Shown here piece after piece: positions 1 through 6,438 of a DNA stretch of 58,422 nt. A model generated the notes under the pieces. The model was not told the origin of the DNA. It ran no database searches and saw only the letters and a program-made list of their open reading frames with translations. The DNA comes from Bacteroidota bacterium (GTDB taxonomy: Bacteria; Bacteroidota; Bacteroidia; AKYH767-A; OLB10): positions 1-58,422 of the forward strand of contig JANOPQ010000038.1 in the NCBI GenBank assembly GCA_031421935.1. Direction: 5' to 3'. How positions within the stretch are numbered: position 1 is the first letter of the stretch; each line of letters starts with the position of its first letter. Position numbers and translations under genes: made by a program.

Positions 1-234
1 ATCATCTTTGGTTGGACCTAATCCACCCGTATTCAATACCACGGATGCCCGTTGAGAAGCTTCCTTGAGTGCAATCAAAATATGATCGCGAGAATCGGAA
101 ACTGAAGTGATTTGATGCACTTGAATGCCAATATCACTCAACTGCTTTCCCATCCATGCCGAATTGGTATCAACAATTTGCCCGATGAGAATTTCATCAC
201 CTATTGTTATAATTTCTGCTCTTACTGTTGACAT
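1..234 (-). CDS. cinA: Competence/damage-inducible protein CinA, N-terminal part (runs off the window)
   Basis: Manual translation [28 protein letters not shown]...[10 protein letters not shown] shows the CinA molybdopterin-binding-like motifs; not in the ORF track. Confidence 0.92.
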
Positions 235-259
235 CTTTTATTCACTAAAATATTTACGG

Positions 260-267
260 CAAAAGTA
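260..267 (-). promoter_or_regulatory. Bacteroidota -7 promoter box (TACTTTTG) for cinA
   Basis: Matches TAnnTTTG 25 nt upstream of the cinA ATG. Confidence 0.6.
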
Positions 268-387
268 AACAATGTAGCTATCTTGAAGTGACTATTTATC
301 GATATAAACTTCAGTAGAATAGCAACCAATTCAAACTAAAGCATGAAGAGAACATGACTTCAAATTTCATTATTACTCAATTGGCAG

Positions 388-395
388 TATATTTG
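388..395 (+). promoter_or_regulatory. Bacteroidota -7 promoter box (TATATTTG) for the DUF4197 gene
   Basis: Matches TAnnTTTG; supports ATG 424 as the start. Confidence 0.6.
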
Positions 396-423
396 AATCG
401 TGGCGACAAAAAAATTTATACTC

Positions 424-1137
424 ATGAAAAAAATACTCCTGCTCATTTTTCTAATCTCGAGCGCATCCTGCAAAAGTCAAATCAACATCAACAACGTTCT
501 TAATACAGTAAATAATTCCTTAGGAAATGGTTTATCCAATGCTGATATCACAGCCGGACTCAAAGAAGCCTTAAACGTGGGAACCAAAAATGCAAGTTCA
601 CAAGTTTCAAAGGTAGATGGGTTTTATAAAAATAATTTAATCCGCATTCCTTTTCCAAAAGATGCTCGCGACATGAAAACCACGCTCGAAAGAATGGGCA
701 TGAAAAAGCAAGTCGCTGCATTTGAAAAACAACTCAACAGAGCCGCTGAAGATGCAGCAAAAAAAGCCGCTCCCATTTTTATGGCAGCCATCACTTCCAT
801 GACCATCAACGATGGACTCACTATTTTAAAAGGAAAAGACGACGAAGCCACACAATATTTACGCAGAGCAACCACAGCTCAACTTGTAAAAGAATTCAGA
901 CCTATCATTGCCGCGTCGATGAAAAAGGTAAATGTGACGAAGTATTGGAATCCGCTTTTTAGCACCTACAACAAAGTTCCACTCGTTAAAAAAGCAAATC
1001 CCAATTTAGATGATTTTGTAACTGAAAAAGCAATTGAGGGATTGTTTCTCATGGTTGCTGGAGAAGAATTAAAAATTAGAAAAGATCCGGAAGCGAGAAT
1101 TTCTGAGATTTTGAAGAAAGTGTTTGGAGGAGGATGA
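424..1137 (+). CDS. DUF4197 family exported protein
   Basis: Signal peptide MKKILLLIFL; motifs GLKEAL, LNRAAEDAA, EELKIRKDP, LKKVFG. Confidence 0.88.
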   Translation: MKKILLLIFLISSASCKSQININNVLNTVNNSLGNGLSNADITAGLKEALNVGTKNASSQVSKVDGFYKNNLIRIPFPKDARDMKTTLERMGMKKQVAAFEKQLNRAAEDAAKKAAPIFMAAITSMTINDGLTILKGKDDEATQYLRRATTAQLVKEFRPIIAASMKKVNVTKYWNPLFSTYNKVPLVKKANPNLDDFVTEKAIEGLFLMVAGEELKIRKDPEARISEILKKVFGGG

Positions 1138-1143
1138 GGTTGG

Positions 1144-1178
1144 TTGTTAGTTGTTAGTTGTTAGTTGTTAGATTTTAG
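1144..1178 (+). repeat. Tandem heptamer repeat (TTGTTAG)x4 plus one degenerate unit
   Basis: Directly visible just after the DUF4197 stop codon. Confidence 0.9.
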
Positions 1179-1256
1179 ATATTGGTCGCTAAGCTTCGCG
1201 ATTAGAATGTATTACTTTAGTTTAAAATTTCCAACCTAAATTAAATCTAATTTAAA

Positions 1257-1275
1257 CCTGCCTGCAGCAGGCAGG
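1257..1275. repeat. Palindrome CCTGCCTGC-A-GCAGGCAGG (REP-like)
   Basis: Perfect 9-bp arms; GC-rich in an AT-rich context. Confidence 0.88.
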
Positions 1276-1354
1276 CGCAGCGTTCGCAACGTTTAGCTAC
1301 GGTAGCAGCGGTCTAATTTTACTAATTTAGAAATTATAAAAATCCGCGACTAAG

Positions 1355-1476
1355 CAAATCCGTGAAAATCCGATTTATCCGCTTCATCCGCGCCTGCCTG
1401 CCGGCAGGCAGGTTCCCTTTTACTCTTCGCCAATCCACAAAAACACATCGGCTTTTGTTAAGGGTTGTAGATGACC
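1355..1476. repeat. Direct repeat copy 1: displaced 3' end of ostA plus its downstream AATCCG-rich flank
   Basis: Aligns with 3430-3531 apart from a 20-bp insertion and 6 substitutions; the minus strand encodes GHLQPLTKADVFLWIGEE*. Confidence 0.93.
1393..1412. repeat. Perfect 20-bp palindrome CCTGCCTGCCGGCAGGCAGG within direct repeat copy 1
   Basis: Self-reverse-complementary; absent from the homologous site at 3467/3468. Confidence 0.93.
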
Positions 1477-1668
1477 CGTAATATTTGTCAAAAAGCTAAA
1501 ACAAATAGGATTTTTGTTTCAAAATCTTGTATAATTATGATTTAATGGCAATTAACTAACAATATTCTCGTTGCCCTATAGCCTGTACTATCAACACCAT
1601 AATAATTTCATTATATTAGCATTCCTATTTAACATCTTCTAATTATTTTGCCATTAAATTTTATACCC

Positions 1669-2355
1669 ATGACTAAAATCATTAGACGCATTTCGATTCT
1701 AATTCTTCTTAGTACATTCTTTTTTACAAATGGATATTCGCAACCAATGTGTAATATTGACTCCATTTATATTTCACCATCAAATCCTGATGATCAAACT
1801 CCGATAAAATTATTTCTTCACGTTGATCTTTGGGCTTCGTATTGTAATCCAAACATGATTCCGACTGGACAAATAGTTCAAACTGGTAATGACTTTAAAA
1901 TAAATAGAAGATTCTGCTCGAATGGTTGGACTAGTTCATGTGTTAATATTGATACTTTTTCTCTTGGAATTTTACCAATTGGCAACTACACAATTACTAA
2001 TTTAATTTACACGGAATTTTGTTTTCTTAGCAACCCTGGCCCATGGGGATCATGCAGCTATCCAACTGTTCAATTCACAGTAAGTACTTTTACTGGGATT
2101 AAGGAAACTAACATACCTCGTTTCAAAATTTGCCCAAATCCATCTAATGGGAAAATTCGAATCAGCGAACTCGATTATCTGAAAGATGGCATCATTTCTT
2201 TGATTGATATGGAAGGGAGAATAATTTTTCAAAAACCATGGAATCCGCTCGAAAACGTATTTGATTTTGGAGATTTAAAACAAGGGATTTATTTCTTAAA
2301 TATCAATTCAATAGATGGAATTAATTCAACCGAAAAATTAATTATAATGAATTAG
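1669..2355 (+). CDS. Cys-rich secreted protein with T9SS type A C-terminal sorting domain
   Basis: Signal peptide; CTD with PNPSNG...GRII...LKQGIYFLNI...EKLII; ATG 1669 preferred over TTG 1648. Confidence 0.88.
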   Translation: MTKIIRRISILILLSTFFFTNGYSQPMCNIDSIYISPSNPDDQTPIKLFLHVDLWASYCNPNMIPTGQIVQTGNDFKINRRFCSNGWTSSCVNIDTFSLGILPIGNYTITNLIYTEFCFLSNPGPWGSCSYPTVQFTVSTFTGIKETNIPRFKICPNPSNGKIRISELDYLKDGIISLIDMEGRIIFQKPWNPLENVFDFGDLKQGIYFLNINSIDGINSTEKLIIMN

Positions 2356-2644
2356 CTCACTAATAAATTTTGGATTTATTATTTTAATTCATCTTATATT
2401 AATCCTAAATAAAAGATATAAAATTGACTATTAAAAAATAATCATGGATGTAAATTGACATTAGACAATCTAAACTAATTAGAACTTTAAAATTAAAATC
2501 TTGTATAACTATGGCTTGTAAACAATTAACAACCCATTTTATCACTGCTAAAAACCTATTAATCTAAATGCCTTCATTCATTTAGATACATTGGCAATCC
2601 TACTTCAACTCTTTATTATTAATTTAACAGATAATTTCACTCTC

Positions 2645-3340
2645 ATGAATAAAATTTTTCGACCTATTTTATATATAATTATCCTAATCACCATTTATAA
2701 TACAGCTGCATTTTCTCAATCTTGCAATGTAGATACAATTTATATTTCACCATCTAACCCTAATAATCAAACTCCAAGTTATATTATTGCAAAAATAAAT
2801 CTACATGGTTATTACTGCAATTTATATTCAACACAAGGAGTTAATTTTAGCGCAACGCTGATCAATAACAATTTCACTTTCGACAGAATTTTTTGTGGAC
2901 CAACCAATGGAATACCTGGGCAATGTTTGAATACTGACACTGTTTTTCTTGGTATCGTACCAATTGGAAGTTATACTATAACATCTAGAATTATGTGGGA
3001 AAATAGTTGCAATGGATTAAGTGTTTATCAAGGAGGATGTAGTTACCCAGTAATTCAATTTAATGTTGGTGCGTTTACAGGTATTAACGAACATCACAAA
3101 TCACTATTTAAAATCTCTCCAAACCCATCAAGTGGTATAATTCAAATCAATGAACTTGATCAACTATTAGACGGCATCATTTCTTTGATTGATATGGAAG
3201 GGAGAATAATTTTTCAAAAACCATGGAATCCTCTCGAAAAAGTATTTGATTTTGGAGATTTAAAACAAGGGATTTACTTTTTAAATATCAACTCAAAAGA
3301 AGGAGTTAGTGCCACTGAAAAGCTAATTCTAATTAAATAA
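2645..3340 (+). CDS. Cys-rich secreted protein with T9SS type A sorting domain, paralog of 1669..2355
   Basis: Signal peptide; shared IYISPSNP and CSYP motifs; near-identical CTD; ATG 2645 preferred. Confidence 0.88.
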   Translation: MNKIFRPILYIIILITIYNTAAFSQSCNVDTIYISPSNPNNQTPSYIIAKINLHGYYCNLYSTQGVNFSATLINNNFTFDRIFCGPTNGIPGQCLNTDTVFLGIVPIGSYTITSRIMWENSCNGLSVYQGGCSYPVIQFNVGAFTGINEHHKSLFKISPNPSSGIIQINELDQLLDGIISLIDMEGRIIFQKPWNPLEKVFDFGDLKQGIYFLNINSKEGVSATEKLILIK

Positions 3341-3429
3341 TCTCTCAAAAATAAATTGAATTTCTAATTTTTATAAGTGGTGTTTATTAGAATCACGATT
3401 AGAGGTAGAAAAAACAATTTAACTTTAAT

Positions 3430-3531
3430 CAAATCCGCGAAAATCCGATTTATCCTCTTCATCCGCGTTCCCTTTTACTCTTCGCCAATCCACAAAAACA
3501 CATCGGCTTTTGTTAGTGGCTGTAGATGGCC
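3430..3531. repeat. Direct repeat copy 2 (functional ostA 3' end and downstream flank)
   Basis: Homologous to 1355-1476 and lacks the 20-bp palindrome. Confidence 0.93.
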
Positions 3532-5052
3532 TTTCCATTTAAAATCTTTTAATCGCATTTGAGTAGGATCGGTTTCTTTGACTGGAAAAAGGGTAGCGTC
3601 GGCTTTGTTGATGAGTGAAATTTTACTGACTTTATTTTCCTTAATGCGAATAAGCATATTGCTACAATCGGCTTGATTAACACCTGTAATTTGTTTCTTC
3701 TTGTTACGGATGTGATAAATGGATTGTCCATTCCCAGTCACGTCTATCGTACTTAATTTATTATCTACAAAATAGCCAATCATTTCTCGCCCCTTAATTT
3801 GATTGAAACGCAAAGAATCTTCGAAGCCTGCAATAAACGAATTCGAATACAAATTCATTCTCTTAATTTCACTTCCCGCTAACAACAATGAAATTTTATC
3901 GGCCGTAAGTTGATTGTTGTTGCTCCATAAAATAGGATTCTTATAAAACCAAATCGTTGAATCAACAGAACTGTAAACCAAAGAATCACATTGCCCTTGC
4001 AAATCGGTTTTAAAAATACGAACATGACGGTAGGCGAAGTACGTTTTTTGTTCGGTAGCGGTGTCTTGCTTCGCATAAAGCGTATCGGCATGCATGTAAA
4101 GTGAATCAACATCAAAAACTTTGGTGAGCAATCCATTTCCTGTCACGAATGAGATTCCAGTAATTTCATTGAGCCATGCATAATCACCACTGATAATTAC
4201 TTTTTGGTTGGTATCGACAAGCTGAACATTGTTATAAGCGATACCAATTTTTTCAACACGATCATACAGTATACTATCACCACTCAATCTATTTTCCTTC
4301 GATTCAATATATGCATTTTTACTAAACCTCGATTTCTCCGTTTTGGTATTATACCATCCATTCTCGCAGTAAATATGAGCGCTATCGGTTCCCGTACTGT
4401 ATATATGCGACGGACCAAAGAAATAGGTTGTAGACGATGGCGTATGATATTTTAATGTATCACTAAACATCTTATATTTAGGATTGGTAAGCACCACACT
4501 ATCTTTAAAAAAAACCATTCTATCTTTCGAATAATAATATCCTTTTTTACTGGTGAGCACATTGTCTTTATCAACAACCTTCCCTCCTACTTGATAGTTT
4601 CCAACATCGTTCTCCGTATCGTACTGCATAGCGGTAGTGGTTAATTCCATCTTCCCATCCGTCATGCGAACTACTTTACCCGTCACGTCGGCATTTTTAG
4701 TATTGCCATCATAATGAACAAAGTCGCCATACAATTTTGCGCTTGGACCTTCAATACGAATGGTTCCGTACGCATCAATACTATTCGTGCTTTCGTAAAA
4801 CAAAGCACTGTCGCAATACATATAGGTGTTTTCTTGCTTGAAAATAACATCGCCTACTAATCGGCGTACTTCGATGCCATCAATTTTTACACCTTCTAAA
4901 CTACCAGCTTGAACAATTTCAATCTGCTTGCCTTGTTGTGCAAAAGATGAATGAATATTCAATCCAAAAAGCAATAAAAACAAAAACAGTTTACCGCCAT
5001 TAATTTGAAGCAGTAAATTATTTTTTTTAAACATGACAGTAGAATTATTCAA
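3475..5052 (-). CDS. OstA-like (LptA/LptD N-terminal beta-jellyroll) protein
   Basis: Signal peptide; repeated CDSA, ADTL and CDSLVY motifs; position after purA as commonly seen in Bacteroidota. Confidence 0.85.
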   Translation of the reverse strand: MNNSTVMFKKNNLLLQINGGKLFLFLLLFGLNIHSSFAQQGKQIEIVQAGSLEGVKIDGIEVRRLVGDVIFKQENTYMYCDSALFYESTNSIDAYGTIRIEGPSAKLYGDFVHYDGNTKNADVTGKVVRMTDGKMELTTTAMQYDTENDVGNYQVGGKVVDKDNVLTSKKGYYYSKDRMVFFKDSVVLTNPKYKMFSDTLKYHTPSSTTYFFGPSHIYSTGTDSAHIYCENGWYNTKTEKSRFSKNAYIESKENRLSGDSILYDRVEKIGIAYNNVQLVDTNQKVIISGDYAWLNEITGISFVTGNGLLTKVFDVDSLYMHADTLYAKQDTATEQKTYFAYRHVRIFKTDLQGQCDSLVYSSVDSTIWFYKNPILWSNNNQLTADKISLLLAGSEIKRMNLYSNSFIAGFEDSLRFNQIKGREMIGYFVDNKLSTIDVTGNGQSIYHIRNKKKQITGVNQADCSNMLIRIKENKVSKISLINKADATLFPVKETDPTQMRLKDFKWKGHLQPLTKADVFLWIGEE

Positions 5053-5157
5053 TATGGCAAGAAGAAATTATTTATACGATTTGAAATTTATCTCTACGGA
5101 TGCACTCTAATTTTGAATACATCCATCTAAAAAAAACAAATCAAATTTAGTTACAAA

Positions 5158-6438
5158 TTAAAATGCAACTTCTTTACGCATCAACGTTTGTTTACGATCT
5201 GGACCCACCGAAATAATTGTGATCGGAAGTCCGGTAGCTTGCTCGATATAATCCACGTAGTGCATCAAAGAAGCAGGGAGTTGATCGAAATCACTTACCT
5301 TCATCAAGTCTTCCTGCCATCCTGGAAGTTCATCGTAGATAGGCTCAATTTTTTCATTGACTACATCATAAGGAACGTGTTCAATCTTTTTTCCTTTGTA
5401 TTTGTAGTGCGTACAAACTTTAATGGTATCAAATCCACTTAGCACATCCGATTTCATCATGATCAACTGTGTAACGCCGTTCAACATAATGGCATATTTC
5501 AATGCTGGCAAATCCAACCATCCACAACGACGCGGACGACCTGTAGTAGAACCAAATTCATTTCCATTTTTACGCAACGTTTCGCCAGTGGAATCCTCCA
5601 ACTCGGTTGGAAAAGGTCCGCTGCCTACACGTGTACAATATGCTTTGAAGATTCCGTACACCTCACCTATTTTACCAGGAGCTAATCCAAGACCAATACA
5701 AGTTCCAGCAGTTACCGTGTGCGAAGAAGTAACAAAAGGATACGAACCAAAATCAATGTCAAGCAATGATCCTTGAGCACCTTCTGCTAAGATGGCTTTG
5801 TTATTTGCCAAATAATTATTGAGCACATACTCACTATCAATCAACATTAATTGTTTGATCGCTTCAACTCCTTCAAAAAATGCAGGCTCTAATTCACTTA
5901 AATTATATTTATAATTATAATGGCCTAACAATTCCTTGTGTTTAGCTACTAAAGTATCATACAAAGATTTAAAATCGGCGTGTTCCAAATCACCAATACG
6001 TAATCCGTTTCTACCGGTTTTATCCATGTAAGTTGGACCAATTCCTTTTAAGGTAGATCCAATTTTTGAAGTACCTTTCGATGCTTCAGAGGCTGCGTCG
6101 AGCAAACGATGCGTTGGTAAAATAAGATGCGCTTTTCGAGAGATATATAAATTTTTCTTTACATCTACACCTAACTTTAACAATGCATCAATTTCCTTTT
6201 TAAAAACCACAGGATCAATTACCACCCCATTGCCAATCACATTTGCTTTTGTAGGATGAAATATTCCAGATGGAATGGTATGCAACACATGTTTTATTCC
6301 TTCAAATTCCAACGTATGACCCGCATTAGGTCCACCCTGAAATCTAGCAATCACATCATAACGTGGAGTGAGCACATCCACCACTTTTCCTTTACCCTCA
6401 TCGCCCCACTGAAGGCCTAACAATACATCCGCTTTCAT
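5158..6438 (-). CDS. purA: Adenylosuccinate synthetase
   Basis: QWGDEGKGK, GGPNAGHT, EGAQG and TTGRPRRCGW motifs; start placed at MKADVLLG. Confidence 0.98.
   Translation of the reverse strand: MKADVLLGLQWGDEGKGKVVDVLTPRYDVIARFQGGPNAGHTLEFEGIKHVLHTIPSGIFHPTKANVIGNGVVIDPVVFKKEIDALLKLGVDVKKNLYISRKAHLILPTHRLLDAASEASKGTSKIGSTLKGIGPTYMDKTGRNGLRIGDLEHADFKSLYDTLVAKHKELLGHYNYKYNLSELEPAFFEGVEAIKQLMLIDSEYVLNNYLANNKAILAEGAQGSLLDIDFGSYPFVTSSHTVTAGTCIGLGLAPGKIGEVYGIFKAYCTRVGSGPFPTELEDSTGETLRKNGNEFGSTTGRPRRCGWLDLPALKYAIMLNGVTQLIMMKSDVLSGFDTIKVCTHYKYKGKKIEHVPYDVVNEKIEPIYDELPGWQEDLMKVSDFDQLPASLMHYVDYIEQATGLPITIISVGPDRKQTLMRKEVAF

Follow-up and report, generated by a model that had tools for sequence, protein, structure and literature searches.

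An integrase-less islet behind an ostA-like gene, bracketed by allele-like copies of the gene tail: possible import by host recombination in a Bacteroidota genome

The 58,422-nt contig JANOPQ010000038.1 of the Bacteroidota bacterium assembly GCA_031421935.1, referred to below as the window (contig C38 of genome G000; assembly of 3.97 Mb in 273 contigs, 1.6% contamination), carries a small islet between a DUF4197 gene and a convergent OstA-like gene (ostA). The islet holds two genes for proteins with sorting domains of the type IX secretion system (T9SS) and is bracketed by two copies of the ostA 3' end. It is proposed, at about an even chance, that positions 1477-3531 (2,055 bp) were acquired from another lineage of the genus by host recombination, with no enzyme encoded by the element itself. 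Congeners have empty sites where the segment is inserted, the two gene tails differ as alleles do, no recombinase gene lies between them, and scars of the same type are found at further genes of the genome. The entry of integrase-less islets, which make up a large part of the accessory genome, is largely unexplained; the locus itself is an ordinary gene gain, and the allele signature together with its recurrence makes an old question testable.

The features that define the duplicated gene tail are the following, in positions of the window:

1351..1392: dispersed element resembling a repetitive extragenic palindrome (REP), in copy A, orthologous to the element that follows ostA in congeners G005, G007 and G018
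1393..1412: hairpin of 20 nt, GC-rich and palindromic, found in copy A and not in copy B; the dispersed element carries it as an optional module
1420..1476, minus strand: displaced dead copy of the last 18 codons and the stop codon of the OstA-like gene (copy A), adjoining the native intergenic flank
1476..1477: the sole novel joint, tail A to islet, where homology to the empty sites of congeners ends
3426..3467: REP-like dispersed element in copy B, its outer edge forming the left end of the repeat
3475..3531, minus strand: functional tail of the OstA-like gene (copy B), with 4 synonymous sites relative to copy A
3475..5052, minus strand: OstA-like gene, 525 amino acids, with OstA_2 and LptD_N (Pfam E 7.5e-48 and 1.3e-13); purA lies beyond it

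The direct repeats comprise copy A, 1351-1476 (126 nt), and copy B, 3426-3531 (106 nt), and align in two blocks, 1412-1476 with 3467-3531 (65 nt, 94%) and 1351-1392 with 3426-3467 (42 nt, 93%). The 20-nt offset between the blocks corresponds in the alignment to the extra hairpin of copy A, which the initial annotation of this DNA had not mentioned. Read on the minus strand, the two copies specify the same peptide, GHLQPLTKADVFLWIGEE*, and their differing codons, four in number (GGT/GGC, CAA/CAG, CCC/CCA and TTA/CTA), are all synonymous (4/4; P = 0.0027, a random substitution in these codons being synonymous with a probability of 0.228). The last 57 nt of ostA lie within copy B, and the gene is kept whole by this tail adjoining the islet; copy A is part of no gene, its frame being closed 14 codons upstream and lacking a start codon. 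The initial annotation had described an integrase-free islet with only two T9SS cargo genes between duplicated ostA ends that differ solely by silent changes, and the description was borne out in each of these respects.

The joint at 1476|1477 lies precisely on a codon boundary of ostA, K|G (...WK|GHL...), and no inverted repeats were found by eye at the islet ends. Across the 3.97-Mb assembly the coding half of the repeat and the short spacer that precedes the stop codon have just these two copies, whereas the non-coding half belongs to a dispersed family with 12 nhmmer matches (E<0.01, whole assembly; two of them here) and 27 hairpin motifs counted by regular expression, its members occurring with and without the hairpin. 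The locus-specific duplication therefore amounts to only ~65 nt, and the outer left edge of copy B coincides with an edge of the dispersed element. Over the 65-nt block copy A is identical to copy B at 61/65 positions and to the G007 allele at 62/65 (manual count). An origin of the two copies by tandem duplication was rejected, since the sequences that follow copy A and copy B are unrelated. REP-like elements of this kind (1351-1416 and 3426-3471, also 1258-1276) sit just past stop codons, in congeners too, and are probably terminators or mobile repeats.

The state of the junction in relatives identifies the segment as an insertion. An OstA-like protein was detected in 37 of the 41 genomes searched, G000 included, and the protein of G000 shares 91-96% amino acid identity with those of G004, G005, G007 and G010. 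Among the 15 congener DUF4197-ostA loci that were inspected, 13 are empty, with the two genes convergent, roughly 10-460 nt apart and with one tail. G005 provides a clean empty site, as it aligns to window positions 1-1476 and 3459-5200 in alignments that overlap by 73 nt, and when the 2,055 bp are subtracted from G000 the distance between the stop codons becomes 282 nt, like that of the closest relatives. DNA matching the tail was found in 6 genomes, in two copies only in G000 and in a single copy in G004, G005, G010 and G018, and a search of 19 congener genomes for the islet DNA returned a single 38-nt match, the islet being otherwise absent.

The same junction holds other material elsewhere in the genus. 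G017 carries there a different T9SS cargo gene (819 amino acids; DUF2341, Ig_7 and Por_Secre_tail) without a tail copy, and G011 (G011:C16, 161-2237) an insertion sequence (IS) with a DDE_Tnp_1 transposase of 501 amino acids and 14-nt inverted repeats, which is single-copy in that genome. On either side of the IS in G011 lies a perfect direct repeat of ~205-215 nt, which holds the last 54-55 nt of ostA; the DUF4197 gene of this genome lies at the end of another contig, which shares repeats with the start of the IS-bearing contig. The contents of one syntenic junction of conserved genes are thus none at all (13 loci), the orphan cargo pair (G000), the 819-aa gene (G017) or the IS (G011). The initial annotation had proposed a comparison of these junctions for empty sites or different cargo, and both occur; an arrangement common to all relatives, which it had named as telling against its reading, was not found. 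In G018 a break near residue 237 leaves ostA in two frames, and in G009 the gene has two in-frame stop codons; either case may reflect an assembly error or a pseudogene.

Copy A shares its states at the four differing sites with G004 and G007, and copy B shares its own with G005 and, in part, with G010 and G018. Both spellings of the tail occur in working ostA genes of congeners, so that the two tails look like working alleles, in agreement with the earlier suggestion that both descend from selected alleles of the gene. The REP part of copy A agrees with G005, G007 and G018 at 3 positions where copy B differs, and the intergenic regions of these three genomes align colinearly with copy A and its left flank.

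The islet and the left flank comprise the following features:

400..1137, plus strand: DUF4197 gene, conserved left flank, convergent with ostA (Pfam PF13852, E 2.5e-76)
1477..3425, plus strand: islet body, of low GC (0.24-0.35 against 0.35-0.43 in the flanks), absent from 19 congeners
1669..2355, plus strand: cargo gene 1, 228 amino acids, with signal peptide, Cys-containing orphan N-domain and T9SS C-terminal sorting domain (PF18962, Por_Secre_tail, E 6.2e-10)
2645..3340, plus strand: cargo gene 2, 231 amino acids, tandem paralog of cargo gene 1 (Por_Secre_tail, E 3e-10)

Both open reading frames (ORFs) have PF18962 as their only Pfam match, and in the 2,055-bp segment they are the only ORFs of note, with no recombinase or mobility gene. 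No transposase, terminal inverted repeats or IS remnant was found in the islet, nor any homolog of restriction-modification (RM) genes. The two cargo proteins share 56% identity at a spacing of 985 nt, and their family counts 3 members in 5.8 billion proteins, two of them here and one on a 1-kb contig. The N-domain had 3 weak matches only (E 1e-4 to 7e-4) in 146 genomes of the order, and nothing useful was returned for cargo relatives by a protein scan of metagenome contigs or, with the 3-sequence alignment as query, by a contig collection of 185,579 species (size according to its description). As to function, the best ESM Atlas score was 0.84, below the useful range, and AlphaFold on the 3-sequence alignment gave a mean pLDDT of 51, with only the sorting domain above 70.

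Scars of the same kind were found elsewhere in G000 by a self-comparison for direct-repeat pairs of 45-500 nt, with a spacing of 300-15,000 nt and an identity of at least 78%. Of the 90 pairs, 8 combine the 3' end of an ORF (100 amino acids or longer) with a second copy that lies outside any ORF. Besides ostA the scar affects seven genes (AMP-binding, TP_methylase, dnaG, ComM-like and others), and the islets carry unrelated cargo. The eight pairs are listed by contig, with the synonymous and nonsynonymous differing codons of the two copies:

C38 (window, ostA): 4 synonymous, 0 nonsynonymous
C141, 1510-4679, behind an AMP-binding gene: defence-like cargo AAA_21 and RloB; 189-nt, 94% tail repeat; 9 synonymous, 4 nonsynonymous
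C159, 1496-4324, behind a TP_methylase gene: cargo a 536-aa T9SS protein; 17 synonymous, 4 nonsynonymous
C29, 2365-7759, behind dnaG: cargo TonB_C and two T9SS cargo genes, 5.3 kb; displaced 48-nt dnaG tail; 4 synonymous, 1 nonsynonymous, two gapped codons
C119: 14 synonymous, 10 nonsynonymous, one stop codon
C169: 14 synonymous, 19 nonsynonymous
C46: no differing codons, one gapped
C204: decayed

Further cargo consists of a Y1 transposase behind a ComM-like gene, a Fic gene inside a duplicated sorting domain and a TraB/GumN gene behind a glycosyltransferase gene. No integrase was found in the bracketed islets of these scars. When C38, C141 and C159 are pooled, with C119, C29, C169, C46 and C204 omitted, 30 of the 38 differing codons are synonymous (P = 5e-13 against an expectation of ~0.23), and the stubs at C141 and C159 keep the frame open over 65 and 71 codons. 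The recurrence of one scar at seven other genes with unrelated cargo argues for a general recombination route, not for a cassette specific to ostA.

At the locus behind the TP_methylase gene (C159) a congener, G004, has an arrangement of the donor type. The repeat of G000 there (218 nt at 88.5%) shows roughly two dozen differences along the whole length, to within 1-3 nt of the distal edge, and stub and tail match different congeners, site by site. The site is empty in G005 and G007; G004 (C75) has the same islet gene at 97% identity behind the same core gene, without a second tail, whereas the flanking core-gene region of G000 and G004 is only ~82% identical overall, which points to a recent inter-species transfer into the same locus. 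In G000 the order is syntenic flank, an extra 365-aa ORF, stub, islet, tail and gene. The dnaG site is empty in G005 and holds part of the islet in G004, and in G007 a separate displaced copy of the dnaG tail lies at another position. The C159 and dnaG loci suggest a series of insertions, each next to the gene, by which older material and its stubs were moved outward. The C141 pair lies in an island of ~9.7 kb or more that is lacking in congeners.

Other long direct repeats in G000 flank an IS related to that of G011 (55 nt, C139), an AbiE pair, a YhcG-type nuclease and a second Y1 transposase. IS200-like genes for Y1 transposases lie on C224 and C46, each within long direct repeats (259 nt and 84 nt); one of these repeats includes the ComM-like tail, and the two genes may encode REP-associated transposases. 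At the C29 islet locus (L095 5073-5270) there is also a dispersed element of ~190 nt, present in many copies in G000 and in congeners at 75-99% identity, with the look of a miniature inverted-repeat transposable element (MITE).

The joints of the islet were examined in Logan contigs, which derive from a different assembler, in runs X1, X2, X3 and X5 and with 31 nt as the bridging criterion; X1 and X2 belong to one study, X3 and X5 to two others, and X1 is possibly the source sample of the assembly. The joint between tail A and islet is bridged, with A-specific bases and 0 differences, by X1 record 3 (1431-2217) and X2 record 11 (1431-1817), and an X1 contig (3247-3515) spans the joint between islet and tail B; flank and islet have similar contig depths in X1 (6.8-8.7). 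Islet pieces at 99-100% identity are also present in X3 and X5, where X3 record 21 covers just 27 nt of the islet and X5 record 29 just 12 nt of tail A, both below 31 nt; cargo 1 in X3 and cargo 2 in X5 are uncovered, and at a depth of 2-4 no reading was drawn from this. No islet-skipping or circle joint was seen in the contigs, which drop rare forms, so that this is evidence neither way. Minor-variant contigs of X1 and X2 (window 3490-3601) carry G010-like and G005-like ostA tails, which indicates that several congeners co-occur in the same sediment samples. A short tandem repeat at 1141-1180, directly after the DUF4197 stop codon, has a repeat-number variant in X1/X2 contigs, and congeners have different short arrays at this place.

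Under the proposed import, the incoming DNA would have contained the two tandem orphan T9SS-cargo genes, the REP-like element and the donor's version of the last 18 ostA codons. One side would have been anchored by homology in or at the ostA tail, and the other joined illegitimately at one point, 1476|1477. Either one-sided homology-facilitated illegitimate recombination of a linear fragment or, equivalently, a single crossover of a circularised fragment, a natural counterpart of insertion-duplication, could have produced this arrangement. The donor-type arrangement of G004 at C159 and the presence of several congeners in the same samples speak for such an import. The incoming tail would then complete ostA, and the resident tail, which would be copy A, would be left as a dead stub on the native REP and DUF4197 flank; the donor would have had the islet adjoining ostA without a second tail. 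Host recombination is the simplest single event that accounts together for the insertion, the intact gene, the stub on a native flank, the allele-like differences, the lack of a recombinase and the many target genes. Homologs of ComEC and DprA are present in G000, but the same families match 10-11 of 14 control genomes and are uninformative on natural competence.

Several observations weigh against this reading. All 4 coding differences are within the last 16 nt adjoining the gene body, and a later allelic exchange ending inside copy B could give the same pattern. The central 68 nt are identical between A and B, with a last-codon spelling absent from the 5 closest relatives, which also fits an in-place duplication, and fits a very close donor too. 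Sliding identity along ostA against five congeners shows no clear foreign tract, and a donor with the islet adjoining ostA was not found in 19 congeners, 146 genomes of the order, the contig collection of 185,579 species or metagenome scans; the exact 26-nt pattern of the junction between tail A and islet gave nothing useful in metagenome contigs. Independent support for this joint comes from one study only, whose run X1 is possibly the source sample. Lastly, the ostA breakpoint is common to G000 and G011, with an anomaly of G007 within 20 nt, which a random illegitimate joint would not predict.

The K|G boundary at which the G000 repeat ends is also, to within 0-1 nt, where the repeat of the G011 IS ends, and the chance of a match within 1 nt is roughly 1% if the boundary is taken as uniform over the last 300 nt. 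In G007 (G007:C31, 3003-3100) a unique 58-nt A/C-rich filler lies inside ostA, flanked by a 20-nt direct repeat that spans the K|G boundary; if real, it would alter or replace the conserved OstA C-terminus, but it may be an assembly error. A MITE was considered for this filler and rejected, as the insert is unique in G007. No motif shared among the breakpoints of C38, C141, C159 and G011 was found by eye. The common breakpoint may reflect a break hot spot, a target preference of the IS or chance. Of the site preference put forward in the initial annotation, the shared boundary with G011 and the nearby anomaly of G007 are the only hint; an ostA-specific att system did not emerge.

Among other explanations, a true long target duplication is possible but doubtful. 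The two copies would at first have been identical and then have diverged, with exchange among congeners rewriting the gene-proximal end of B and REP-to-REP conversion its distal end. Insertions of this kind, with duplications >30 bp and no mobility genes, are documented for RM genes in the portion of the report consulted (Furuta, Abe and Kobayashi 2010; PMC2853133), and IS1634 and IS1549 are described, in an excerpt of PMC2266710, as making direct repeats of 8-514 bp. The G011 IS, with its ~205-215-nt repeat at the same ostA boundary, and its homolog in G000, with a 55-nt repeat (C139), fit this explanation, as do the identity of A and B over the central 68 nt and the clustering of the coding differences near the gene body. 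Each of several loci would however have needed two or three separate events. The C159 differences extend to within 1-3 nt of the distal edge, where a donor without the islet gives a conversion tract no homology to end in, and the stubs at C38, C141 and C159 show no excess of nonsynonymous change or frame damage. There is no IS remnant in the islet, and the G011 IS matches only C139 in G000. Moreover, the published repeat pairs that appear in the consulted part of PMC2853133 closely match one another (e.g. 417/423) and resemble the empty target less, whereas here tail A appears nearer to the G007 allele (62/65) than to B (61/65).

A self-propagating circle of the islet with one tail is unlikely. 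It would be excised through RecA and re-enter the ostA tail of other lineages by a single crossover, leaving hybrid repeats. The architecture equals that of laboratory insertion-duplication, and hybrid repeats, with native outer and foreign inner arms, would fit both the native REP of copy A and the differences on either side of an identical core; a similar life cycle is hypothesised for RM units, without evidence for release, in PMC2853133. Against it, G004 holds the C159 islet with no second tail, so that the repeats are not needed for its presence, and no islet carrier besides G000 was found in the relatives and collections searched.

Quite unlikely is a site-specific non-autonomous cassette, resembling a cis-mobilizable element (CIME), in which the repeats would be attL and attR and a recombinase acting in trans would integrate and excise the islet at the ostA tail. 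The direct repeats that bracket the islet, the restored gene end, the breakpoint shared with G011 and approached by the G007 anomaly within 20 nt, and an identical 68-nt core between differing arms would fit such a cassette. No recombinase was found in the islet, however, and the ostA loci examined in 29 relatives showed no integrase-bearing element at the tail. The seven other scarred genes have unrelated tails and breakpoints, with no shared motif by eye, and many specificities would be needed; the distal edge of the repeat is the edge of a dispersed REP or a stop codon, where allelic homology ends, and does not look like the arm of a recombinase site. The suggestion in the initial annotation of a dedicated cassette with ostA as its attachment site is thus not upheld. 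An assembly chimera of two co-occurring strains, the other circumstance which that annotation had named as fatal, is very improbable even for a metagenome-assembled genome of this many contigs, with some contamination and with related strains or species in the same runs, since contigs of another assembler bridge the A joint (X1, X2) and the B joint (X1) at even depths.

In returning to import with tail displacement, a wider proposal can be put forward tentatively, at rather less than an even chance: many 'long target duplications' at integrase-less islets may be allele pairs, formed when an accessory cassette came in beside a core gene with a foreign 3' end that took the gene over and pushed the resident tail out as a fossil allele, with at least 8 such scars in this genome and stacking at some (C159, dnaG); the K|G site of ostA may in addition be a break or nicking hot spot used independently by three congeners (the islet of G000, the IS of G011 and the filler of G007). 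If the repeats are two alleles, the mechanism becomes one-sided homologous recombination, testable with marked donor DNA; each stub would be a dated sample of the pre-insertion allele, separating donor from recipient; and annotators could spot such islets by their synonymous-only tail repeats. In this organism genes for secreted surface proteins (T9SS cargo) and defence-type genes are gained at fixed spots behind core genes.

Integrase-dependent islands and CIMEs sit at gene 3' ends with attL/attR repeats. The islet resembles them in its attL/attR-like repeats and restored gene end, and differs from them in that no recombinase was found in the islet or at the site in relatives and in that many target genes are scarred in one genome. 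A literature search on genomic islets with direct repeats, homologous recombination and integrase returned reviews only, none of them on this pattern.

The minimal mobile elements of Neisseria (Saunders and Snyder 2002, cited in PMC1797815) share with this locus a fixed conserved junction with varying small gene sets or none and without mobility genes; in the passages of PMC1797815 consulted they are clean allelic replacements by flanking homology, with no duplicated gene tail. IS1634 and IS1549 (PMC2266710, in part) likewise have direct repeats of tens to hundreds of bp, and relatives of this IS type occur in G011, at the very ostA breakpoint of the islet, and at another place in G000 (C139); unlike these two, the islet has no transposase, terminal inverted repeats or IS remnant. 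In Rhs and type VI secretion system (T6SS) effector-immunity arrays, displacement by homology-facilitated illegitimate recombination was proposed (Kirchberger et al. 2017, PMC5361080). As far as the consulted part of that article describes them, these arrays also have a one-sided homology anchor, retain the old 3' end downstream as an orphan stub and are built by successive events, comparable to those at C159 and dnaG. There the event brings a new toxin tip and an immunity gene, whereas here the incoming tail would encode the same 18 residues of a housekeeping-type protein and the displacement would be a by-product.

The closest known case is insertion with long target duplication (Nobusato et al. 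2000, cited in PMC2853133), the mechanism of which, by the account in that part of the citing report, has remained unresolved since it was described. The same text gives a low-GC insert of <20 kb with no mobility gene, with repeats >30 bp that are single-copy in the empty genome and may overlap the 3' end of a neighbouring gene, all as found here. The islet departs from that description in carrying two T9SS-sorted orphan proteins in place of RM genes, so that breaks made by an RM system are not needed, and in its Bacteroidota host, the presence of at least 8 scars in one genome and repeats that differ like selected alleles. By these traits the islet would fit the known type except for its cargo, and the difference in substance would be that its repeats behave as two alleles.

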